Positions 1 to 10,140 of a stretch of 12,871 bases of DNA are shown piece by piece. The stretch's first letter is position 1; each line of letters begins with the position of its first letter. This stretch comes from an uncultured bacterium. GTDB lineage: Bacteria > Krumholzibacteriota > Krumholzibacteriia > Krumholzibacteriales > Krumholzibacteriaceae. The notes beneath the pieces are model-generated. The model worked only from the letters and a program-made list of their open reading frames with translations. It searched no databases and had not been told where the DNA came from. The stretch is taken from NCBI GenBank assembly GCA_965371515.1, contig CBDUYR010000065.1, positions 1-12,871 on the forward strand, in the 5' to 3' direction. The translations under genes and the position numbers were made by a program.

Positions 1-831
1 GAGACCGGGGACCAGGTAAGCCCCCTGGCAGTCCCTGATGATGCGGATGGTGCTATCGTTGTCTGGATCGATTGGCGCAGTGGAGAGCGCGACCTCTACG
101 CACAGCGGTTAGACGCAGACAGCACCTGTCAGTGGACTCCGGGCGGCGTGCCCGTCTGCACAGCCGCGGGCGACCAACGCAAACACGACGCGATTGCGGA
201 CGGCAACGGAGGGATGATAAGCGTATGGCAGGATGAGAGAGGAATCGACATCAACCTGTACTCACAGCTTATAGATGCCGACGGAATACCGGCCTGGACG
301 GCTGACGGGATCCCGGTCTGTTCAGAAACGAACGACCAGCTCTTGCCACGGCTTGCAACCGATGGCCGGGGGGGCGCGATCTATACATGGGCGGACCGGC
401 GTGATGCAGTATGGTATGAGGCTACAATATACACCCAGAGGATCACTGGGGCCGGCATTGCGGCGTGGCCTGCCGGCGGAATCCTGATCAGGGAACCCGG
501 AGGCTGGGATAACTCGATGCCGACAATAGTTCCTGACGGCTTCGGCGGGGCGATCATCGCCTGGTTCACATCGGAGCACCTGCCGGGAGCCCGGATCCCG
601 TCGCCAGCCGAATCCAGCGCAGAGGATATCGAGACGATCTACACACAGCGTATTGCGGGCGATGGAACGATCTGGTGGCAGGAAGGGGGCGTGCCGCTGT
701 GTGATGACCCTGGATATACCGCGCCGCGCAGCCAGAAGATACTCCCGGACGGTACGGGGGGAGCGGTCGTCACCTGGTACAATGTATTCGACATGGCTGG
801 CATTTTTGCACAGCGCGTAAACGGTACGGGC
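1..831 (+). repeat. About five protein-level tandem repeats of ~54 aa or longer (consensus DQ..P....DG.GGAI..W.D.R....IY.QR....G...W...G.PVC)
   Basis: Units read from the translation: DDADGAIVVWIDWR..DLYAQRL; DGNGGMISVWQDER..NLYSQLI; DGRGGAIYTWADRR..TIYTQRI; DGFGGAIIAWF..TIYTQRI; DGTGGAVVTWY..GIFAQRV. The first two units are each 54 aa. Confidence 0.85.
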
Positions 832-1143
832 AACGCTCCGCCGACAGGCACGGAACCGCAGCCGATTGCCCCGTTCAGCACACGAAACTATCCAAATCCG
901 TTTAATCCTCATACTACGATCGCATTCGCGATCCCCGAGGCAGGGCACGTCGATCTTCGAATCTACGATGTCGCCGGACGGCTCGTCCGAATACTGCTGA
1001 ACGAACAGAGGGTCGCCGGCAGTCACGAGGAAACATGGAACGGCGCGGATGACAGCGGCACGACCGTTGCGAGCGGTGTCTACTACTACCGCCTGAGCGC
1101 CGGCAATTTCCTCGAGACAAGAAAGATGGTACTGCTGCGTTGA
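1..1143 (+). CDS. Secreted repeat (probable beta-propeller) protein with C-terminal FlgD-Ig / T9SS type A sorting-like domain; 5'-truncated by the window edge
   Basis: Frame 1 is open from base 1 (ETGDQVSPLAVPDDADGAIVVWIDWRSGERDLYAQRLD...) and joins the track ORF 148..1143, so the GTG at 148 is internal. The C-terminus NYPNPFNPHTTIAF...LRIYDVAGRLVRIL...WNGADDSG..VASGVYYYRL...KMVLLR matches the FlgD-Ig/Por-secretion tail pattern. Confidence 0.85.
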   Translation, partial: ETGDQVSPLAVPDDADGAIVVWIDWRSGERDLYAQRLDADSTCQWTPGGVPVCTAAGDQRKHDAIADGNGGMISVWQDERGIDINLYSQLIDADGIPAWTADGIPVCSETNDQLLPRLATDGRGGAIYTWADRRDAVWYEATIYTQRITGAGIAAWPAGGILIREPGGWDNSMPTIVPDGFGGAIIAWFTSEHLPGARIPSPAESSAEDIETIYTQRIAGDGTIWWQEGGVPLCDDPGYTAPRSQKILPDGTGGAVVTWYNVFDMAGIFAQRVNGTGNAPPTGTEPQPIAPFSTRNYPNPFNPHTTIAFAIPEAGHVDLRIYDVAGRLVRILLNEQRVAGSHEETWNGADDSGTTVASGVYYYRLSAGNFLETRKMVLLR

Positions 1144-1189
1144 GAATTCGGGTAGACCGTCCCTTGCTCTGTGTTTCATACTCCGGTCC

Positions 1190-3733
1190 ATGATACGGAC
1201 CGCCGCACTCATACTGTCTTTTCTGATACTTGTCGCCGCCCTTTCATCATGCGGGTCGCAGCAGGAGAGCGTCCCTCGCGCGAAAACCACGCTCGAGCTT
1301 GATTCGGGATGGAGTTTCCGGCAGGAGGAAGACGACAGCGACTGGATGCCGGCGGCCGTCCCCGGCTGTATCCATACTGACCTGCTGGCCGCCGGCGCAA
1401 TACCCGACCCCTTTTTCGGCGATAACGAGAAGGACCTGCAATGGATCGGCGAGAAGGAATGGGTCTACGCCTGCACGTTTATCGCGGATGAGACGCTGCT
1501 GCGGCACGACAAGGTCTACATCACATTTGCAGGGCTCGATACCTACGCCGAGGTAAGCCTGAACTGCGTCCGCCTGTTCGATGCGGACAACATGTTCCGC
1601 GAATGGCGCGCCGACATCAAATCCCATCTCATCGAAGGGGAGAATGCCCTCGAGGTCCGGTTCCTTCCGCCCGGCCCGATAGAGGCCGAAAAACGAGCCG
1701 TCCCGGGATACGACCTGCCCGGCGGCGACAGAGTCTTTACGCGCAAGGCGGCTTATCACTACGGCTGGGACTGGGGTCCGGGATTCGTCACATGCGGCAT
1801 CTGGAGACCGGCGCTGATCACCGGCTGGTCCGATGTCATGATAAAGGAGATGGATGCGCGGATCCTCGAGATCTCGGGTGAGCGGGCCGTCGTCGACATC
1901 AGGGTGGACCTGTTTTCCGTATCCCAGGGCGAAGCAGAAGTGATCCTCCGCAATAAGAGCAGCGACAGGCAATACACTCGGAGGGTCATGTGCTTGAGCG
2001 GGGATAAATCAGAGGCAGCCGCCTTTGAGATCTCCATCCTCGAACCGCAGCTCTGGTGGCCGGCAGGACTGGGCGATCAGACTCTCCAGCACTATAAGGT
2101 CGAGGTCTTCATCGACGGTATCCTGGTAGACTCGTCGAACCTGGACTTCGGCATCAGATCGATCGAGCTAGTCACCGAAAAGGAAGAAGCGGGCGAAGCG
2201 TTCTATTTCCGCGTCAACGGCGTCCCGGTGTTCATGAAGGGGGCGAACTGGATCCCGATGGACAGTTTCCTGCCCAGGCCAGCCCCCGGCGATTACCGCC
2301 GGCTGCTGACGGCTGCGAAAGACGCCAACATGAACATGCTCCGGGTATGGGGAGGCGGGATATACGAGAACGACATATTCTACGACCTGTGCGACTCGCT
2401 CGGCATACTCGTATGGCAGGATTTCATGTACGCATGCGCGATGTATCCCGGCGACGATGAGTTTCTGGAGAACGCGGCAATCGAAGCAGAAGAGAATATA
2501 AGGCGATTGAGGAACCATCCCTGCCTCGCTCTGTGGTGCGGAAACAACGAGAACAACGAGGGATGGCACAATTGGGGATGGCAGCCTCAGTACTCCGAAG
2601 ACCAGCGCCTGGAGATATGGAAAGCGTATGAAGACCTCTTCGCCAGCATTCTGCCGAAGGCAATCGGAAAATGCGATGTTCGTGCATACCACCCTTCCTC
2701 ACCGAGATTCGGCAGGGCCGATCCGCGCAGTCTGACCGAGGGAGACGCACACTACTGGGGAGTATGGCACGACGCCGAGCCGTTCGAGGTACTCGAGGAG
2801 AAAATCCCCCGATTCATGAGCGAATTCGGGTTCCAGTCCCTGCCATCGATGAATACGATAGAGCTGTTTACAGATCCGGACGGACGGCATCTCGATTCTG
2901 AGGCGATGCTGAGCCACCAGAAGCATCCGCGCGGCTATCAACTGATCCGTGAATACATGGAGCGCGGGTACCGGGTGCCCGAAAAGTTCGAGGACTATAT
3001 CTACGTCAGCCAGCTCCTGCAGGCTGAGGGAATGCGCATCGGGTTTGAGGCGCAGAGGCGTGCCATGCCGCACTGCATGGGGACTCTCTACTGGCAACTA
3101 AACGACTGCTGGCCGGCCGTCTCGTGGTCGAGCATCGACTACGGCGGAGAATGGAAGGCTCTGCACTACGCGGCGAAGAAAGCGTTCGAGCCCGTACTCG
3201 TATCGACCGCGATAGAAGACGGATTGCTCCACCTCTACATAGTCTCCGACAGGCTCGAGGAGATAGGAGGCTGGATGAAGATGAAGCTCATGGGGTTTGA
3301 CGGTAAAGAGCTGTGGGAGAGGACGATCGCGGTAAAAGCTCCGCAGAACGAAAGCGTAAATATATTCTCCATCCCGCTCGACGAGTTTCTTTCCGATGCG
3401 GACCGCTCGTCGGTCGTATTCTCGGCAGAATTTATCTGTCCGGGGGAGAAGCCGCCTGTTGCGATCCGTTACTTCGTGTATCCAAAGGATATGAAGCTTC
3501 CCGCTGCCGAGGTAGCTTTTGATGTGATTCAAGGTGATTCGGGAGTGACGCTCACACTGACATCCGGTGTCCTTGCGAAGAATGTCTTCCTGGATCTCGA
3601 AGACAGTCATTTCTCAGACAATTTCTTCGACATACTACCGGGCGAGACAAAAAATGTAATCGTCGACATCAACATACCGGTTGATGAGATAAAAGACAGG
3701 CTCAGGATCAGGACCCTCAGGGATACTTACTGA
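1190..3733 (+). CDS. Glycoside hydrolase family 2 beta-mannosidase, predicted lipoprotein
   Basis: 847 aa. Motifs RKAAYHYGWDWGP, KGANWIP, NMLRVWGGGIYE, WQDFMYAC, WCGNNE (acid/base Glu), GDAHYWGVWH, RFMSEFGFQS (nucleophile Glu), YWQLNDCWP and FSDNFFD are typical of GH2 beta-mannosidases. Hydrophobic N-terminus ends in lipobox LSS-C21. Confidence 0.93.
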   Translation: MIRTAALILSFLILVAALSSCGSQQESVPRAKTTLELDSGWSFRQEEDDSDWMPAAVPGCIHTDLLAAGAIPDPFFGDNEKDLQWIGEKEWVYACTFIADETLLRHDKVYITFAGLDTYAEVSLNCVRLFDADNMFREWRADIKSHLIEGENALEVRFLPPGPIEAEKRAVPGYDLPGGDRVFTRKAAYHYGWDWGPGFVTCGIWRPALITGWSDVMIKEMDARILEISGERAVVDIRVDLFSVSQGEAEVILRNKSSDRQYTRRVMCLSGDKSEAAAFEISILEPQLWWPAGLGDQTLQHYKVEVFIDGILVDSSNLDFGIRSIELVTEKEEAGEAFYFRVNGVPVFMKGANWIPMDSFLPRPAPGDYRRLLTAAKDANMNMLRVWGGGIYENDIFYDLCDSLGILVWQDFMYACAMYPGDDEFLENAAIEAEENIRRLRNHPCLALWCGNNENNEGWHNWGWQPQYSEDQRLEIWKAYEDLFASILPKAIGKCDVRAYHPSSPRFGRADPRSLTEGDAHYWGVWHDAEPFEVLEEKIPRFMSEFGFQSLPSMNTIELFTDPDGRHLDSEAMLSHQKHPRGYQLIREYMERGYRVPEKFEDYIYVSQLLQAEGMRIGFEAQRRAMPHCMGTLYWQLNDCWPAVSWSSIDYGGEWKALHYAAKKAFEPVLVSTAIEDGLLHLYIVSDRLEEIGGWMKMKLMGFDGKELWERTIAVKAPQNESVNIFSIPLDEFLSDADRSSVVFSAEFICPGEKPPVAIRYFVYPKDMKLPAAEVAFDVIQGDSGVTLTLTSGVLAKNVFLDLEDSHFSDNFFDILPGETKNVIVDINIPVDEIKDRLRIRTLRDTY

Positions 3734-3734
3734 A

Positions 3735-3739
3735 AGAGG
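3735..3739 (+). promoter_or_regulatory. Shine-Dalgarno site for the GH92 gene
   Basis: AGAGG lies 8 nt upstream of ATG 3748, within the 14-nt gap after the GH2 stop; suggests co-transcription. Confidence 0.6.
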
Positions 3740-3747
3740 AAATCACA

Positions 3748-6702
3748 ATGAACCGTGCTGTACTTGTCGCTGCGCTGGCCATGCTGTCGCTTCTCTCCTG
3801 CTCGCCGGGAGGCGAGGATCTTGCCCGGCATGTCGACCCGATGATCGGCACGGGCGGGCACGGGCACACATTCCCCGCCGCAACGGTGCCGTTCGGGATG
3901 GTACAGCTCGGCCCCGACACGCGGCTTACCGGATGGGATGGATGCTCGGCATACCACTACTCAGACGATGTCATGTACGGGTTCAGCCATACCCACCTCA
4001 GCGGGACCGGATGCTCCGATTACGGCGACATCCTCATTATGGCAACGACGGGTGAGGCGCTTCTCGTTCAGGGAGAGGGCGACGACACCGGAAACGGCTA
4101 CCGCTCTCGCTTCACGCATGAGACGGAGCGGGCTGAACCGGGATATTACGCCGTCAGGCTCGACGACTACGGGGTCGAGGCCGAGCTGACTGTGACGGCA
4201 AGGGCGGGGATGCACCGCTACACCTTCCCCGAAGCGGAGCGGGCGAACATCATCATCGACCTTCTTCATCGCGACAAGGTCATCGATTCAGCGATCCGCA
4301 TCGTCGGCAACAATCGCATCGAGGGGTACAGGCGCTCGCGGGCCTGGGCGAGGGACCAGCATGTCTACTTCTCCGCCGAGTTCTCACAGCCGTTTATATC
4401 TCACGGAGTCGCGCTCGACGACCGGGCGCTCGAGGGCGCCTCCGCAGCCTCGGGCGGGAACATCAAGGCGTTCCTCACCTTCGACGCCGCCGACGGAGCG
4501 CAGGTAACGATGAGGATCGGGATATCGGCGGTCGACATCGAAGGGGCGCGAAAGAACCTCGAGTCGGAGATCCCGCACTGGGATTTCGGACGTGTCCGCT
4601 CCGACGCAAAGGCGCTCTGGAACGAGGCGCTCGGGCGGATTGTCGTCGACGGAGGCACCGGCGCGCAGAAGACGACATTCTATACAGCGCTCTATCACAG
4701 CCTGATCGCCCCCAACCTCTACGTCGATGTCGACGGCAGGTACCGGGGCAGAGACCTTTCGATCCATACAGCGGACGGATTCGACTATTACACGGTGTTT
4801 TCCCTGTGGGACACATACCGCGCCACCCACCCTCTCTTCACTATCATCGAGCGTGAGCGGACGGTCGATTTCATAGAGACGATGCTCGCGCAGTACGAGC
4901 AGGGCGGGATGCTGCCGGTCTGGGAACTCTCCGCCAACGAGACGGGGACGATGATCGGGTACCACTCGATACCGGTGATCGTCGACGCCTGGATCAAGGG
5001 GATACGCGACTTCGACCCGGCCCGAGCGCTTGCGGCGATGAAACACAGCGCCGACCAGGACCATCTCGGGCTGAAATATTATAAAAAGTACGGATTCATC
5101 CCGGCGGGCAGCGAGGGCGCGTCGGTGTCCCGGACCCTGGAGTACGCCTACGACGACTGGTGCATAGCCGAGTTCGCAAAATCGATCGGCGAGAGAAAAG
5201 ACTACGAGAGATTTATCCGGCGGGCCCAGGGGTACAGGCACATCTACGACCCGTCGGCGGGATTCATGAGGCCGCGGATAAACGGCGGCTGGCTCTCGCC
5301 TTTCGATCCGTCCGAGATCAACTTTCACTACACCGAGGCGAACGCGTGGCAGTACACCTTCTACGTGCCGCAGGACGTCGAGGGGTTGATCAGGCTGATG
5401 GGAGGTCGCGAGGTTTTTGCCGCACGTCTCGACGAGCTCTTCACGACATCCTCCGAGACGTCGGGGCTCGAGCAGCCCGATGTGAGCGGGCTTATCGGCC
5501 AGTACGCCCACGGGAACGAACCAAGCCAGCACATGGCCTACCTCTACAACTTCGCCGGGGTGCCGTGGAAGACTCAAGAGCGCGTCAGAGAGATCATGCA
5601 AACCATGTACGGCGATACGCCCGACGGGCTCTGCGGAAACGAAGACTGCGGGCAGATGTCGTCGTGGTATGTACTCAGCGCGCTGGGGTTCTACCCGGTA
5701 ACTCCCGGCTCCGACATTTACATCATCGGCTCTCCCCTCTTCGAGCATGCCGAGATCCAGCTCGAGAACGGGAAGAGGTTCAAGGTAACCGCCGCGGATC
5801 TTTCCGAAGAGAATGTCTATATACAGGGCTCGACGCTACGGGGGAAACCATATTCGAAGAGCTGGATCCGTCATGACGACATCATGAAGGGCGGCGAGCT
5901 TGTCTTCGAGATGGGGCCCTCGGCGGGCTCGTCGTGGGGAACGGCGGAAGAGGACCTCCCTCCATCGAGTATAGAGGATCACCTCGTCCTTCCAGCGCCG
6001 TATCTCGATCCCACGCCTTATTCCTTCTCCGGCTCGCTCGAGGTCACGATGGGGTGCTCAGATCCGAAGGCGGAGATCCGCTACACGACCGACGGGAAGG
6101 AACCGTCGGGCAGGTCGAACGAGTACACGAGGCCGCTGAAGATCAACCGGCCCGCGGAGATCAGGACGATCGCCATCAGGAAGGGGATGGAGCCGAGCCC
6201 GGTGGTCGACACGAGGTTCGAGATGATCCCCGACGACATATCGCTCGTACTTCATTCTGAGTACAGTTCGATGTACACAGCAGGCGGCAACATGGCCCTG
6301 ATCGACCGGGTACGCGGTGGCGACAATTTCAGGACGGGGATGTGGCAGGGATTCAAGGGAACCGACCTCGAGGCCGTTGTCGACCTTGGAAAAACACGAA
6401 AGGTACGGAGCATTGCGGCAGGATTCCTGCAGGAAACGGGATCGTGGATATTCATGCCCGAATCGGTCGAGTTCGCCGTCTCGAAAGACGGGAAGAAGTA
6501 CGAGACGGTGGCGGTCCTCACCCATGCCATCCCGCAGGACCTCGAGGGCTCGGTGACGAGGGATTTTATGAAATCGGGGATAAACAGGCGCGTGAGGTAT
6601 ATAAGGATGACGGCGAAGAATGCCGGGCTGTTGCCCGAATGGCACCCCGGTGCGGGACATCCGTCATGGCTGTTCGCCGACGAGATCATGGTTGAATACT
6701 GA
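3748..6702 (+). CDS. Glycoside hydrolase family 92 alpha-mannosidase, predicted lipoprotein, with C-terminal chitobiase/FN3-associated and F5/8-type-C (discoidin-like) domains
   Basis: 984 aa. GH92 motifs VDPMIGTGGHGHTFP, GFSHTHLSGTG, FSLWDTYR, SRTLEYAYDD, YTEANAWQY, YAHGNEPSQH and GNEDCGQMSSWY. IRYTTDGKEP marks the chitobiase/beta-hexosaminidase C-terminal-type module; WQGF..VVDLG..WIFMP..RYIRM..WLFADEI marks the discoidin-like module. Lipobox LLS-C18. Linkage specificity is not assignable by eye. Confidence 0.93.
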   Translation: MNRAVLVAALAMLSLLSCSPGGEDLARHVDPMIGTGGHGHTFPAATVPFGMVQLGPDTRLTGWDGCSAYHYSDDVMYGFSHTHLSGTGCSDYGDILIMATTGEALLVQGEGDDTGNGYRSRFTHETERAEPGYYAVRLDDYGVEAELTVTARAGMHRYTFPEAERANIIIDLLHRDKVIDSAIRIVGNNRIEGYRRSRAWARDQHVYFSAEFSQPFISHGVALDDRALEGASAASGGNIKAFLTFDAADGAQVTMRIGISAVDIEGARKNLESEIPHWDFGRVRSDAKALWNEALGRIVVDGGTGAQKTTFYTALYHSLIAPNLYVDVDGRYRGRDLSIHTADGFDYYTVFSLWDTYRATHPLFTIIERERTVDFIETMLAQYEQGGMLPVWELSANETGTMIGYHSIPVIVDAWIKGIRDFDPARALAAMKHSADQDHLGLKYYKKYGFIPAGSEGASVSRTLEYAYDDWCIAEFAKSIGERKDYERFIRRAQGYRHIYDPSAGFMRPRINGGWLSPFDPSEINFHYTEANAWQYTFYVPQDVEGLIRLMGGREVFAARLDELFTTSSETSGLEQPDVSGLIGQYAHGNEPSQHMAYLYNFAGVPWKTQERVREIMQTMYGDTPDGLCGNEDCGQMSSWYVLSALGFYPVTPGSDIYIIGSPLFEHAEIQLENGKRFKVTAADLSEENVYIQGSTLRGKPYSKSWIRHDDIMKGGELVFEMGPSAGSSWGTAEEDLPPSSIEDHLVLPAPYLDPTPYSFSGSLEVTMGCSDPKAEIRYTTDGKEPSGRSNEYTRPLKINRPAEIRTIAIRKGMEPSPVVDTRFEMIPDDISLVLHSEYSSMYTAGGNMALIDRVRGGDNFRTGMWQGFKGTDLEAVVDLGKTRKVRSIAAGFLQETGSWIFMPESVEFAVSKDGKKYETVAVLTHAIPQDLEGSVTRDFMKSGINRRVRYIRMTAKNAGLLPEWHPGAGHPSWLFADEIMVEY

Positions 6703-6720
6703 CCATTATTCTCATATATT
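6692..6720 (+). promoter_or_regulatory. Putative sigma70-type promoter for the metal-efflux unit (-35 TTGAAT 6692-6697, 17-bp spacer, -10 TATATT 6715-6720)
   Basis: 4/6 and 5/6 matches to TTGACA and TATAAT with optimal 17-bp spacing, in an AT-rich patch of an otherwise GC-rich window. The -35 overlaps the last codons of GH92. Confidence 0.55.
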
Positions 6721-6729
6721 TACCGGTAA
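6720..6729. promoter_or_regulatory. Perfect 10-bp palindrome TTACCGGTAA, candidate operator
   Basis: Self-complementary; abuts the -10 box and covers the expected transcription start. Confidence 0.35.
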
Positions 6730-6750
6730 GCTATACGGAACAGGCGGACC

Positions 6751-6755
6751 GGAGG
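6751..6755 (+). promoter_or_regulatory. Shine-Dalgarno site (GGAGG) for the His-rich RAPP ORF
   Basis: GGAGG lies 4 nt upstream of ATG 6760; supports translation of this ORF. Confidence 0.65.
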
Positions 6756-6759
6756 ACAG

Positions 6760-7212
6760 ATGATCGGGACCATCAGAAAGAGCAATATCTCGACCAGGGG
6801 CGGAATACTCGCCGCGCTCCTTCTCGTTGTGTCATTCGCGTCTGCCCAGGTCGCCTGCCTGACCCACACACACTGTGAAGGCGCGGACTGCTTCGAGCAC
6901 CGGGAAGAATCCGGCGCCCCTCAATATCCCGGACACCACGAACACGAAACTGATCACGAATGCGGCCACGGGGCCGATTCCCCATGCGAGGAAGAGCGTC
7001 AGGATCACGACATACATCATCACTCGCATGACGGGAAGACCCACCCGAAGCGAAGATTCACAACGCCTGCCGTAGAAGCAACCTTTGCCGATGCCACCAG
7101 CGAAGAGGCTCCTGTCTTCGAGCTGGCTGAATGGTCCCCGGTGGTCGATGAATCGCCGCCCTTCGAGAGATACGGACTCATCTTCGCCGAAAGAGCCCCT
7201 CCTCTCTCCTGA
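6760..7212 (+). CDS. Exported His/Cys-rich small protein with C-terminal RAPP motif; putative ribosome-arrest leader (DUF2946/CruR-like layout, czcI-like position)
   Basis: 150 aa with a strong SD. Basic N-region, hydrophobic ILAALLLVVSF and ASA29 cleavage-like site; 14 His and 5 Cys within residues 33-95; His/Cys-free linker 96-144; R145-A-P-P148-L-S-stop. Confidence 0.75.
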   Translation: MIGTIRKSNISTRGGILAALLLVVSFASAQVACLTHTHCEGADCFEHREESGAPQYPGHHEHETDHECGHGADSPCEEERQDHDIHHHSHDGKTHPKRRFTTPAVEATFADATSEEAPVFELAEWSPVVDESPPFERYGLIFAERAPPLS

Positions 7213-7306
7213 CCTCATAACTGATTTCATTTTTTCAATCTGAATCATGCGGCTCCGCGCCCGGTCATGGACATGGCCATACGGCAGCCCAACACATGGA
7301 GTGGAA

Positions 7307-8560
7307 ATGAACCTGAAAGTATCGATCCTCATCATGGCCTGTCTCGTCCTGACGCCTCATCTGGTGTCCGGCGCCGAGATACGGGTCGGCTTCGAGGATA
7401 TCCCGGGAATGGTGATGTCGGGCAGCCCGTTCGCCCTTATCCTGGACGGGGACCTGAGCCTCGCGAAGGCCGAGAGGGATCTCTCGGTGCGATGGACGAA
7501 TCCCTCACTGGTCTGGGAGATGGAGGAAGCGGGCAACGACGAAGTGACTTCCCGCGAGTGGGTCGTCGCACTCGAAAAGGAATTCGCCATGCCCTGGTCG
7601 TACGCGAAGAAAAGGAGCGGGTCCAACCTCCGTCTTGCATCTTCACGACTCGGCTGGGAGGCCTCCAGGCGGCGGCTCGTCTCACGCATGCGGCATGGGT
7701 ATGTGACGCTTAAACTCCGCGACATCGAGGCGGAGATCCTCGAGGTCTTCGAGGAAATCATAGGCGACGCCTCGCGTGTCATCACGGACAGAAAAGAACA
7801 GGGAACCGTCTCGGGCGTCGAAAAACGGTTGATCGACATGTCTCTCATCGCAGTACGGGCAAGGATGATTAAGACCAGGCTGGAAAGACGCGAGGTCATG
7901 GATGATTGGAAGACGGCTATGGGGATACCGGCCGAAAATTCGGTCATCCTCGTCTCGGAACTCGACCTGACCACCGACTGGCTGTCTTCCGGCCATGTGA
8001 CGGCCGACGGATCGTCCGACATAGAGAGCCGCAGGCTCGCAACGCAGGCTCTCGAGAAAGACATCGGGCTTGAAAAGGGGGACATCTTCCCCTCCCTGAG
8101 TATCGCAGGTGGATACAGGAGCGTCGATGACCAGTTCACCGGATTCGTCGTAGGGCTTTCACTTCCGATCCCTGTCCTCAACCGTAACTCGGGCGGTATC
8201 GACCGGGCCAGGGCCGAGCACAGGAAAGCGCAGGTGGAACTCGATCTGTACGAAACTATCCGGGAAAGACATATATCGAGATTGATGCTTGCCGCCCGGG
8301 ATGAAGCCGACCTGCTGAAGCGGTACCACGGGGACTTCGCGTTCATCGAAGAGCACGTCACCGACCTGGCCCTTTCGTACAAAGAGGGATGGATCGATCT
8401 CGGCGATTTTCTCGAGGGGATACGGACCTATGCCGAAGGGATCGAATCGTATTTCGACATGCTGGAAGATTATAACAACATCGTTTTTGAGCTCGAAAGG
8501 CTGACCGAGCGAGAACTCTACGCGCCGGGGAATGCCCGGAAGAAGGAGACCGGATCATGA
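7307..8560 (+). CDS. TolC-family outer membrane efflux protein (CzcC/CusC-like)
   Basis: Start reassigned from 7247 to the in-frame ATG 7307 (GGAG at 7298-7301, followed by signal peptide MNLKVSILIMACLVLTPHLVSG-A), giving 417 aa. Outer-membrane-factor features: NPSL, FPSLSIAGGY, VGLSLPIPVLNRNSGGI.RA.AE, YKEGWIDLGDFL, ELERLT. Directly precedes adaptor and RND genes. Confidence 0.88.
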   Translation: MNLKVSILIMACLVLTPHLVSGAEIRVGFEDIPGMVMSGSPFALILDGDLSLAKAERDLSVRWTNPSLVWEMEEAGNDEVTSREWVVALEKEFAMPWSYAKKRSGSNLRLASSRLGWEASRRRLVSRMRHGYVTLKLRDIEAEILEVFEEIIGDASRVITDRKEQGTVSGVEKRLIDMSLIAVRARMIKTRLERREVMDDWKTAMGIPAENSVILVSELDLTTDWLSSGHVTADGSSDIESRRLATQALEKDIGLEKGDIFPSLSIAGGYRSVDDQFTGFVVGLSLPIPVLNRNSGGIDRARAEHRKAQVELDLYETIRERHISRLMLAARDEADLLKRYHGDFAFIEEHVTDLALSYKEGWIDLGDFLEGIRTYAEGIESYFDMLEDYNNIVFELERLTERELYAPGNARKKETGS

Positions 8561-10140
8561 ATCTGAAGAGACTGGCCCTGCTGCCGGCGTTCATTCTCAT
8601 ACTCACGTCATGCGCGGCCGAGAAAGGAACCGACGGGCACGAAGGACACGATCACGAGGAGCACGCTATCAGCGTGACGATCTGGGAGAGCGGCATCGAG
8701 CTCTTCACGGAGTTCCATGCGCCTGTGCGCGGGGAAAAGACGGAATTCCTGATTCACCTGACACGCCTGGAGGATTTCAGGCCGGCCGCCGCCGGGAAGG
8801 TCAACGTCGTACTGAGGGACAGCGGCAGGATAGCCGCCTCCGGCTCGGCCGACCATGCCTCGCGGAGCGGCATCTGGATAGTCGAGGTCGATGCTCCCGA
8901 GCCGGGCGACTATGAAGTCGCCGTATCATACAACGGTGCGGGGAGCGCTGTCTTCGAGATGGGAACAGTGACGGCATTCGCGACCGAGGAAGAGGCCGCC
9001 CATGCGGGAGAGGCCGCTTTTACAGAGAACGCAGACCACGAGGGACATGATCATTCCGACGGGCACGGCCACGGCGATGACGTCGAGACAGTCGCGTTCC
9101 TCAAGGAACAGCAGTGGAACACGGAATTTATGATAGAAGAGATCCACAGGGTCAGGATGCGGGCTTCCTTCCCGACTATCGCAGAGGTTGTACCAAGACA
9201 GTCAGGATTCGCCGAAATAGTAGCTCCCGTCGAGGGATACCTGCAGATCCATCACAACCAGGACATGGTCGTGCCGGGCCGGGAGGTCCAGCCCGGCGAT
9301 CGCCTGCTTACTATCTGTCCGCCGCTGGAGGGAACGGGATCGTGGACCGAACGCCGGTTCGCCTATGACAGGGCGAAGAAGGAGTTCGAAAGAGCCGAGC
9401 GGCTGATCGCGCGCGAGGCGATCTCACAGCGGGAGTACGATGAGATCCGCAAGACCTGGCTCGTCGAGAAAACGAGCTTCGAGGCGATCCTGCAGGGAGT
9501 CGAGGCGGAATCTGCAACAGATTCGGAAACGGGCGAGATTCACCTGATCCTGAAATCGCCTGTCGCCGGCATCGTCGCGTCGGTCGATGTCATGCCCGGG
9601 CAGACTGTCGCCGCCGGGCAGAAGCTGATGACGATCGTTGATCCGGCGGTTGTATGGCTCAGGGCCGACATGTTCGAAAAGGACTACTACCGCATGGGCA
9701 TCCCCCGCGGAGCCGAGCTCATGGTACCGGGGATGGACGAGGCGATACGGATCGAGGAGGCCGACCTGAAGCTGCTCAGCAAGGGCGGAGTCTTTGACCG
9801 TGGAAGCATGACTATTCCGGTGATATTCGAGATAGATAATAAAGGAGACCTGCTGAAGATCGGCCAGGTCGTCCAGATGGATATATACACGAGCGAAGAG
9901 ATGTCCGCTGTCGCAGTGCCAGAGAAGAGCATCATCGACGAGGATTACGCACGATACGTATTCGTTCAGCAGGGTGGCGAGAGCTTCGAGAAGAGGGCCA
10001 TCACCACTGGCGCCCGTTCGGGCGGTCTGGTCGAGATCACCGAGGGCCTGCGGGCCGGAGAGCGGGTCGTCACCCGCGGGGCCTACAGCGTCAAGCTCGC
10101 CTCGTCGAAGAGCGAGACAGGCAGTGCGCATGTACACTGA
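8557..10140 (+). CDS. Efflux RND periplasmic adaptor subunit (CzcB/CusB-like membrane fusion protein), lipoprotein with His-rich N-terminal extension
   Basis: 527 aa; ATGA overlap with the tolC stop; lipobox LTS-C. Adaptor motifs IVAPVEG, V.PGDRL, FERAERL...AISQREY, LKSPVAGIV....V.PGQ.V..GQ.L..IVD...VWL, AVPEKSI, VEITEGLRAGERVVTRGA. His clusters GHEGHDHEEH, DHEGHDHSDGHGHG and C-terminal HVH. Confidence 0.92.
   Translation: MNLKRLALLPAFILILTSCAAEKGTDGHEGHDHEEHAISVTIWESGIELFTEFHAPVRGEKTEFLIHLTRLEDFRPAAAGKVNVVLRDSGRIAASGSADHASRSGIWIVEVDAPEPGDYEVAVSYNGAGSAVFEMGTVTAFATEEEAAHAGEAAFTENADHEGHDHSDGHGHGDDVETVAFLKEQQWNTEFMIEEIHRVRMRASFPTIAEVVPRQSGFAEIVAPVEGYLQIHHNQDMVVPGREVQPGDRLLTICPPLEGTGSWTERRFAYDRAKKEFERAERLIAREAISQREYDEIRKTWLVEKTSFEAILQGVEAESATDSETGEIHLILKSPVAGIVASVDVMPGQTVAAGQKLMTIVDPAVVWLRADMFEKDYYRMGIPRGAELMVPGMDEAIRIEEADLKLLSKGGVFDRGSMTIPVIFEIDNKGDLLKIGQVVQMDIYTSEEMSAVAVPEKSIIDEDYARYVFVQQGGESFEKRAITTGARSGGLVEITEGLRAGERVVTRGAYSVKLASSKSETGSAHVH

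Follow-up and report, generated by a model that had tools for sequence, protein, structure and literature searches.

A histidine-rich, putatively exported leader ending in RAPP as a likely arrest leader of a heavy-metal RND efflux operon in Krumholzibacteriota

The locus and its genes

The window, which is the whole 12,871-nt stretch of DNA that was analysed, comes from an uncultured bacterium of the Krumholzibacteriota and carries a short leader ORF that is followed by genes for a metal efflux pump (Table 1). An earlier note on this DNA placed tolC, adaptor and RND genes directly after the leader, and matches of their products to the OEP, RND_mfp and TIGR00914 models bear this out. The RND protein reaches 706.5 bits against the CusA/CzcA model TIGR00914 (cut-off 701.45) despite being cut by the contig end. 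The tolC start is most likely at 7307, which leaves a gap of 94 nt after the leader.

Table 1. Coordinates of features in the window and of leader genes compared with it
Feature	Position	Strand	Basis or remark
GH92 glycoside hydrolase upstream of leader	3748..6702	+	Pfam; context only
Sigma-70-type promoter candidate, TTGAAT-17-TATATT	6692..6720	+	9/12 matches, 0.3 expected by chance
10-bp palindrome TTACCGGTAA, right after -10 box	6720..6729		Sequence; TTAC(C/T)GGTA core in genus
Shine-Dalgarno GGAGG of leader	6751..6755	+	Sequence
Leader ORF, 150 aa (P0001)	6760..7212	+	Translation; no Pfam or NCBIfam family
Predicted Sec signal peptide or N-terminal anchor, residues 1-29	6760..6846	+	Hydropathy, Ala-x-Ala before Gln30, by inspection
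His/Cys-rich putative metal-binding region, residues 33-95	6856..7044	+	QxCLxHxH block and second His block, conserved
Ligand-free linker, residues 96-144	7045..7191	+	Sequence varies, length near-constant
Predicted arrest segment RYGxxFxxRAPP, C-terminal, conserved	7168..7203	+	RAPP 7192-7203; predicted P-site Pro147 7198-7200
C-rich, G-poor, weakly folded candidate Rho-loading (rut) site	7168..7245	+	Composition, folding; spans stall site and first third of gap
GC-rich hairpin, candidate pause hairpin	7248..7291	+	Ends ~6 nt before tolC Shine-Dalgarno, leaving ribosome-binding site uncovered
TolC/CzcC-type outer membrane factor	7307..8560	+	Pfam OEP, E 1e-12; start kept in genus; GGAG 7298-7301
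RND periplasmic adaptor with His-rich patches	8557..10140	+	RND_mfp over cut-off
Heavy-metal RND transporter, cut by contig end	10155..12871	+	TIGR00914 over cut-off
Sister-genus leader ending RSPT	L006:2871-3302	-	Natural A-site variant
Sister-genus leader ending RSPT	L007:931-1356	+	Natural A-site variant
Sister-genus leader ending RSPT	L008:2849-3283	-	Natural A-site variant
pMOL30 czcI	L167:25177-25524		Ends RAPD-RP-QWQRLA; pyrimidine-rich gap after
First gene of nieIC-cep-nieBA-type operon	L169:1647-2000		Cupriavidus pauculus plasmid, beside chromate genes; His-rich, ends LRPPHAPA

The leader was earlier described as the first ORF after a promoter. The promoter-like site is kept in 8 of 8 genus sequences, and the three sister genera feature a near-consensus TTGACA-17-(T/A)ATATT at the same place with differing upstream DNA, so that part of the description stands. 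The site is weak by itself, however, and read-through into the leader is possible because a scan found no terminator-like site after the GH92 gene. The palindrome next to the -10 box is a possible operator, and its core is absent from the sister genera. No intrinsic terminator was found by a scan of 6500-7500. A regulator gene, earlier reported as not visible, was not recognised among the large ORFs of the window, and clustering of flanking ORFs by BLAST gave no evident co-conserved regulator near leader loci. The upstream genes (148-6702) encode a protein with a FlgD-Ig/type-IX-like tail, a GH2 beta-mannosidase-like enzyme and the GH92 enzyme, and these genes are not linked to the pump outside the genus; the GH92 neighbour is common to only 2 others of the 36 leader loci described below (among the matches listed).

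The leader peptide

The leader features a signal-like N-terminus, a His/Cys-rich region, a linker and a terminal RAPP. Residues 16-26 are hydrophobic with a mean Kyte-Doolittle value of 3.06 and are followed by Ala-Ser-Ala before Gln30. Inspection of the hydropathy and of this Ala-x-Ala predicts a Sec signal peptide, as the earlier note had proposed. A lipoprotein reading via Cys33 was rejected, as the preceding residues do not fit the lipobox pattern. Counts on the translation reproduce the 63-residue segment with 14 His (36-95) and 5 Cys (33, 39, 44, 68 and 76), all inside residues 33-95, and the 49 residues that follow contain zero His and zero Cys. RAPP forms residues 145-148 and is followed by Leu, Ser and the stop, two codons ahead of the stop as first described. 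The translation contains no CxxC, only the CX4C of C39 and C44. The ribosome exit tunnel holds 30-40 residues. With RAPP at the peptidyl-transferase centre, the leader histidines would thus lie in or beyond the translocon.

A protein database search with the leader gave 26 matches, mostly 47-81% identical, one of which is the window's own cluster. RAPP is kept in 24 of the 26 sequences of an alignment made from the query and the other 25 matches. Both exceptions leave the frame after residue 103. One of them has a RAPP end in another frame, and the adaptor gene is split in the same genome as well, which suggests assembly indels. Across 16 of 16 leader sequences C33, H36, H38 and H87 are invariant, as are Y138, F142, R145 and P147, and Gln30 is also invariant. 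Over 8 genus-level DNA sequences the leader has a pN/pS of 0.40 overall, with 0.28 in the first His block, 0.19 in the second, 0.60 in linker residues 104-131 and 0.16 in the last 19 residues (132-150), where the RAPP codons vary synonymously. The leader is a real gene under selection, and its C-terminus and His blocks are constrained. Orthologous tolC (E below 1e-90) occurs in 8 of 61 related genomes, and a search of 201 class genomes with a leader profile gave strong matches in exactly these 8 and 2 weak extra ones.

No family was matched by the leader in Pfam (E up to 1) or NCBIfam (E up to 0.1), nor by 10 related leaders in the two collections. The earlier note suggested HMM searches against DUF2946 and CzcI, and the leader matches neither model. 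Membership of DUF2946 (PF11162) was rejected, with no profile match at E up to 1 and no CxxC; a PF11162 search of the window's own genome gave one weak match, which is not at the leader. Membership of CzcI (NF045614, NF045615) was likewise rejected, with no match at E up to 0.1 where a true CzcI scores 172.5 bits, and pairwise similarity to CzcI is weak (20.8 bits). The nearest clusters in the ESM Atlas are nameless or carry DUF6769 on 33% of members and share 139 of 256 features, which serves as a lead only.

Related leaders and pump loci

The window's own genome contains a second leader at G000:C21:15977-16312 (-), equal to L165:4978-5313, with a hydrophobic N-terminus, CHHH, CxxC and a terminal RGPPPSV. 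It precedes the genes of an importer: an unassigned protein of 428 aa, then a binding protein of the ZnuA type and a pair of ABC-3 permeases. In the CusA-type pump operon of the same genome (G000:C27, L164:627-6000) the first gene encodes an Rrf2-family regulator, and among the other products is a small exported protein that is rich in Cys and has a His tail; a RAPP leader was not seen there.

The wider survey used the RND N-terminus as query because the leader alignment was too divergent for a scan of the genome collection, and it therefore samples by pump and not by leader. The best 80 loci were listed, and 43 were usable in that a TolC-like gene stands before the adaptor with room upstream; 9 were dropped without an adaptor, 18 without a large ORF before the adaptor, 6 with an ORF that is not TolC-like and 4 with short upstream DNA. 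The most His/Cys-rich upstream ORF was picked at each locus, blind to the motif. All counts that follow for the 43 loci and the 36 leaders are among the matches listed. The picked ORFs end in RAPP (21), RGPP (10), RSPP (1), RPPP (1) or RSPT (2) at 35 of the 43 listed loci. The other 8 comprise one frameshifted RAPP leader, two with HRPPIG ends and five with no such leader, and three of the four listed loci dropped for short upstream DNA still show RAPP leaders. Close kin of the window, with RND identity of 81% or more, make up 5 of the 43 listed loci, and the titles of the remainder name Gemmatimonadota, Neomarinimicrobiota, Acidobacteriota, Planctomycetota, Deltaproteobacteria, Gammaproteobacteria and others. 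The earlier proposal to collect ORFs upstream of homologous operons thus yielded a His-rich leader with the terminal motif at 35 of 43 loci among the matches listed. In the window's own genome R[AG]PP stands within the last 16 residues in 17 of 14,525 six-frame ORFs of at least 60 aa, compared with 31 of the 43 listed pump loci, so the motif is not there by chance.

The 35 motif-ended leaders and the window leader make a set of 36. In 33 of these listed leaders, 93-120 aa separate the Arg from the hydrophobic segment. Each has 9-19 His, and most of these (395 of 445, among the matches listed) are over 45 residues away from the Arg. Cys is absent from 22 of the 36 listed leaders, and CxxC occurs in one. 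No flanking protein group, as clustered by BLAST, is found at more than 6 of the 36 listed loci. The 36 are related to one another, and 17 of those listed have Acidobacteriota-type titles or group with them.

The number and position of the histidines bear on whether the leader might stall and yet monitor export capacity or the envelope state, with histidines that are incidental or act after release. Such a role would follow the classical RAPP/RAGP peptides SecM, ApdA and ApdP, which are secretion monitors (PMC7897499), and the pump itself needs Sec and outer-membrane assembly. However, the leader His blocks are under purifying selection, 9-19 His beyond the tunnel are present in all 36 leaders among the matches listed, and the genes downstream are metal transporters, including those after the second leader of the genome. 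An export monitor is therefore improbable.

On a Salinibacter plasmid (L168:1-2942) a two-component pair is encoded divergently from the same pump type, and the 308 nt ahead of tolC leave too little room for such a leader. The leader and a two-component regulator may be alternatives for the same pump type.

The stall motif and its variants

Studies on relatives determined that RAPP arrests the ribosome with Pro in the P and A sites. RAPP by itself is no guarantee of arrest and adjacent residues are required (PMC12992588). The motif substitutions seen at the loci match ones that permit arrest, or permit it in part, in ApdA/ApdP, and Ser at motif position two is partly permissive (PMC12992588).

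Leader orthologues of three sister genera end in YGFxFxGRSPT in place of RAPP, keeping YGxxFxxR-P, and their RSPT codons differ synonymously, with different Ser and Thr codons. ApdA and ApdP were relieved of arrest by every replacement of the A-site Pro, with Thr ranked third in ApdP, but ApcA tolerates Thr at this position (PMC7897499). By comparison with these peptides, RSPT most readily suggests a stall that is weaker or tuned in another way; it could also mean that the motif counts less than assumed. RSPT was not found in the arrest-leader literature searched, which is a weak test of its absence from print.

Other leader ends were observed before distant tolC genes. Fifteen signal-bearing, His/Cys-rich leaders (L009-L011, L013, L014, L016, L018-L021, L023, L024, L028, L117 and L122), from the same taxonomic order and class, have proline-free hydrophobic ends of the form SLRSV(V/I)(M/L)L(I/A/T)-stop. 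In 14 of the 15 the 40 nt downstream of the stop hold more C than G, and an NCBIfam scan of 8 of them gave no match. Ends of the SLRSVVMLI-stop type are possibly another arrest class. Further ends at the same position are IFHPPRA, PxSDxPLxI and HRPPIG (L017, L025, L026, L110 and L125), and an HRPPIG-ended leader has a weak CopL-family match below cut-off (E 0.0017).

The RSPT and non-RAPP ends at the same position would suit an ordinary periplasmic protein that binds or buffers metal and is co-expressed with the pump, in which the terminal motif serves structure or turnover; the signal peptide and His-rich region fit such a protein as well. It does not readily account for leaders of different phyla that share little beyond architecture, length and a terminal R-x-P-P, which is strongly avoided in bacterial proteomes (PMC12992588), nor for a leader that is always first in the operon. 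A simple metal buffer is thus hardly likely, and the predicted arrest function is the preferred one.

The RNA between the leader and tolC

The RNA around the leader stop points to Rho. The stretch 7168-7245 contains 24 C and 10 G and, with an MFE of -6.8, has the weakest fold of 18 windows compared, and 7180-7257 ranks 2 of 1280 among the 78-mers of the window for C-G skew. Only the 40 nt after the stop were tested across leaders because the Pro codons inflate C-G skew at the stall site. C exceeds G in these 40 nt in 35 of 36 leaders among the matches listed, whereas it does so at 42-56% of ordinary gene ends, of which four sets served as controls (n of 82, 16, 895 and 286). The after-stop skew of the window is not extreme, as 23-25% of own-genome controls reach its value, and the leaders are related, so the signal is suggestive only. 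The second leader of the genome is not C-rich in the 40 nt after its stop (-0.03), in contrast to the exporter leaders. Rho and EF-P are both encoded in the genome. The C-rich, G-poor stretch after the stop suggests Rho-dependent attenuation as a signal of composition and not as a mapped rut site.

The hairpin at 7248-7291 has a z of -0.5 in the window, and in 6 of 9 genus sequences its z is -2 or lower. When the 9 were folded as an alignment no consensus hairpin emerged, since the stem has many indels. A separate observation concerns many Acidobacteriota-type loci (L098, L099, L101, L103, L105, L115, L119-L121 and L124), which have a short GC hairpin beginning at most a few bases from the leader stop, with a pyrimidine-rich tail behind it; it is possibly a pause or weak terminator under the stalled ribosome.

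The same arrest leader could instead act by translational coupling, in which, as for CutF and SecM, the stalled ribosome would melt RNA structure that covers the ribosome-binding site of tolC. The Pro-Pro-Leu-Ser codons (CCTCCTCTCTCC) are complementary to GGAG, and in 11 of 36 leaders among the matches listed the stall footprint pairs with more than 3 bases of the start region. Masking the footprint, as on stalling, gives a gain of more than 2 kcal/mol in opening of the ribosome-binding site in about 10 of 36 leaders among the matches listed. Shuffled controls reach such a gain in 14% of cases, so this route may be in use in some lineages. However, the median gain over the 36 listed leaders is 0.65 compared with 0.32 in controls, and in the window masking makes opening harder (-2.5 kcal/mol) with 0.0 bases paired with the footprint. 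Furthermore, 192 of 200 shuffled versions fold better than 7170-7330 itself (z +1.41), and the genus hairpin stops short of the Shine-Dalgarno sequence. A hairpin that hides the tolC ribosome-binding site, which is the CutF route, was looked for and none is predicted for the window. Translational coupling is rather unlikely at this locus, although these folding models suggest that coupling may differ by lineage.

Comparison with known leader systems

CutF of Rhodobacter capsulatus is a secretion-coupled leader that senses periplasmic copper and turns a detoxifier on (PMC9973294; bioRxiv 10.1101/2025.02.05.636593), and published work shows that it stalls longer with metal bound. CutF is thus already metal-on, and the claim of the earlier note that the logic differs from precedent does not hold as a novelty (PMC9973294). 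Like CutF, the leader is a small first gene with a Sec signal, metal ligands and a C-terminal proline motif at the head of a detoxification operon. CutF uses CxxxC, an EF-P-sensitive PPP and an opened Shine-Dalgarno hairpin, whereas the leader is poly-His, ends in RAPP and has no such hairpin. Ozturk 2023 defined 5,334 CutF-like proteins by a signal, a Cys/His motif and a terminal PP; OEP genes (CusC/CzcC/SilC) of RND systems are their most frequent neighbour, His-only clusters precede HupE/UreJ, and CzcI is placed among them without the proline motif (PMC9973294). By these rules the leader has a signal (by inspection), Pro147-Pro148 within the last 15 residues, a Cys/His motif and, as a metal-related neighbour on the same strand within 1,000 nt, tolC at 94 nt. 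Its length is exactly 150 aa compared with the CutF-like rule of <150, and many of its homologues have 138-144 aa.

CruR (Bp2923, DUF2946/PF11162) of Bordetella pertussis features RAPP- and Rho-dependent control in which stalling blocks Rho (PMC9426467), and its arrest was shown in vitro (PMC12992588). The regulation did not need the export signal (PMC9426467), a point on which the earlier note calls for correction. The leader resembles CruR in having RAPP at its C-terminus, some 45-50 residues beyond the last ligand, and in its export signal and the unstructured C>G stretch at its end, which, together with the Rho of the genome, would suit the CruR mechanism as far as composition goes. Unlike the leader, CruR has a CxxC and a dispensable signal, controls an importer and is switched off by copper (PMC9426467). 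A leader of CruR polarity would be released from its stall by metal and turn the operon off, and the pump would then serve something other than detoxification of that metal. The RAPP, the 45-residue spacer, the Rho coupling and the response to copper of CruR (PMC9426467) make this conceivable, and the spacing of 49 in the leader is similar. The target is, however, a CusA/CzcA-family exporter, and turning export off as metal rises is implausible unless the sensed and exported metals differ; this polarity is very improbable. Metal-prolonged stalling, the polarity of CutF, is preferred because the target is an exporter.

The leader fits the profile of the RAPP/RGPP uORFs collected in Fujiwara 2025, which are small exported proteins with a terminal RAPP (PMC12992588). 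In the source data of that study, TolC lies downstream of 530 RAPP vs 380 AAPP uORFs (5.5-fold), an RND adaptor of 620 vs 148 (16-fold) and CusA/CzcA of 50 vs 7 (28-fold), and many of the TolC-linked RAPP uORFs are His-rich among the 30 rows examined (PMC12992588). The available main text contains 0 occurrences of TolC or efflux (PMC12992588), and "Krumholz" was not found in the supplements searched. SecM, ApdA, ApdP and ApcA share the R-A-P-P core near the C-terminus of an exported peptide; unlike the leader, they serve as monitors of Sec/YidC activity ahead of sec or yidC genes, and no His-rich domain is described for them in the available text of PMC7897499.

CzcI of Cupriavidus metallidurans and nieI of the HME5 operon nieIC-cep-nieBA are, like the leader, small exported His-containing first genes of metal RND operons (PMC7060636). 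The czcI precedent of the earlier note stands as far as this position goes, but CzcI is without RAPP. It ends in RAPD-RP, which sits nine residues from the end, so CzcI keeps R-A-P with an A-site residue tolerated by ApcA. From this end, CzcI itself may be an R-A-P-type arrest leader.

The metal

The RND protein features AIGVLVDDAI in TM4, HSLGSH (612-617) and HRIDH (658-662). NieA, an HME5 pump and putative nickel exporter whose operon begins with nieI, has HAEGVH and HRLDH (PMC7060636). The RND protein thus has the H-x4-H and H-x3-H motifs of NieA, which is a likeness of motifs only and not a tree. The NieA-like pump motifs and the His-dominated leaders point to a divalent metal with nickel first. 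Nickel is tentatively proposed as the main metal sensed and exported, based on these motifs.

Proposed mechanism

The leader is likely a cis-acting arrest leader of the pump operon of the CutF/CruR type, going by its features and genomic setting. The core idea of the earlier note, an exported His-rich uORF with RAPP arrest and control in cis, is supported by the conserved motif, position, spacing and gene order. The preferred model would combine the polarity of CutF with the coupling of CruR. The nascent chain of the leader is predicted to enter the Sec channel and the ribosome would pause at RAPP. Binding of a divalent metal, presumably nickel, cobalt or zinc, to histidines that have been exported would make the pause longer. 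The ribosome held there would likely keep Rho from terminating transcription, and the tolC, adaptor and RND genes would then be transcribed. The whole model, in which a RAPP stall prolonged by metal via exported His shuts out Rho and the pump is transcribed, is given a probability of roughly 0.68. Among its parts, the leader peptide very probably stalls the ribosome and metal probably tunes the stall; a metal-on direction is favoured with less assurance, and Rho is put at a little under even odds as the link between the stall and pump expression.

A broader and rather doubtful reading is that heavy-metal RND pumps of many phyla would share one Rho-coupled His-leader attenuator with interchangeable stall modules. 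It is prompted by the RSPT variant and by the proline-free leaders that share the C-rich tail after the stop. The exported His-rich chain would sense Ni, Co or Zn beyond the membrane, prolong the stall and shut Rho out, with CutF polarity and CruR/TnaC-type coupling. The modules would be RAPP/RGPP here, RSPT in the sister genera, RAPD in CzcI and the proline-free SLRSVVMLI-stop type, and the proline-free hydrophobic end would then be a new class of arrest peptide.

Significance

The His-rich RAPP leader as a kind has already been described in print, and the Krumholzibacteriota locus is an additional member; with the class already predicted, the locus adds an example rather than a concept. New at this locus are the lack of a hairpin at the tolC ribosome-binding site, the C-rich, G-poor stretch, RSPT in the sister genera and the NieA-like pump. 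In the literature searched, mostly without subscription papers, no experiment on a His-rich RAPP leader of an RND pump turned up, nor any test of metal sensing by stalled nascent chains beyond copper (CruR, CutF). The locus offers, in addition, a testable Rho coupling and natural RSPT variants that probe the rules of RAPP arrest. If true, a His-based leader before an RND exporter would widen such sensing to further metals and bring in the main pumps of metal resistance, and reading these genes as leaders might explain the role of czcI-like genes.
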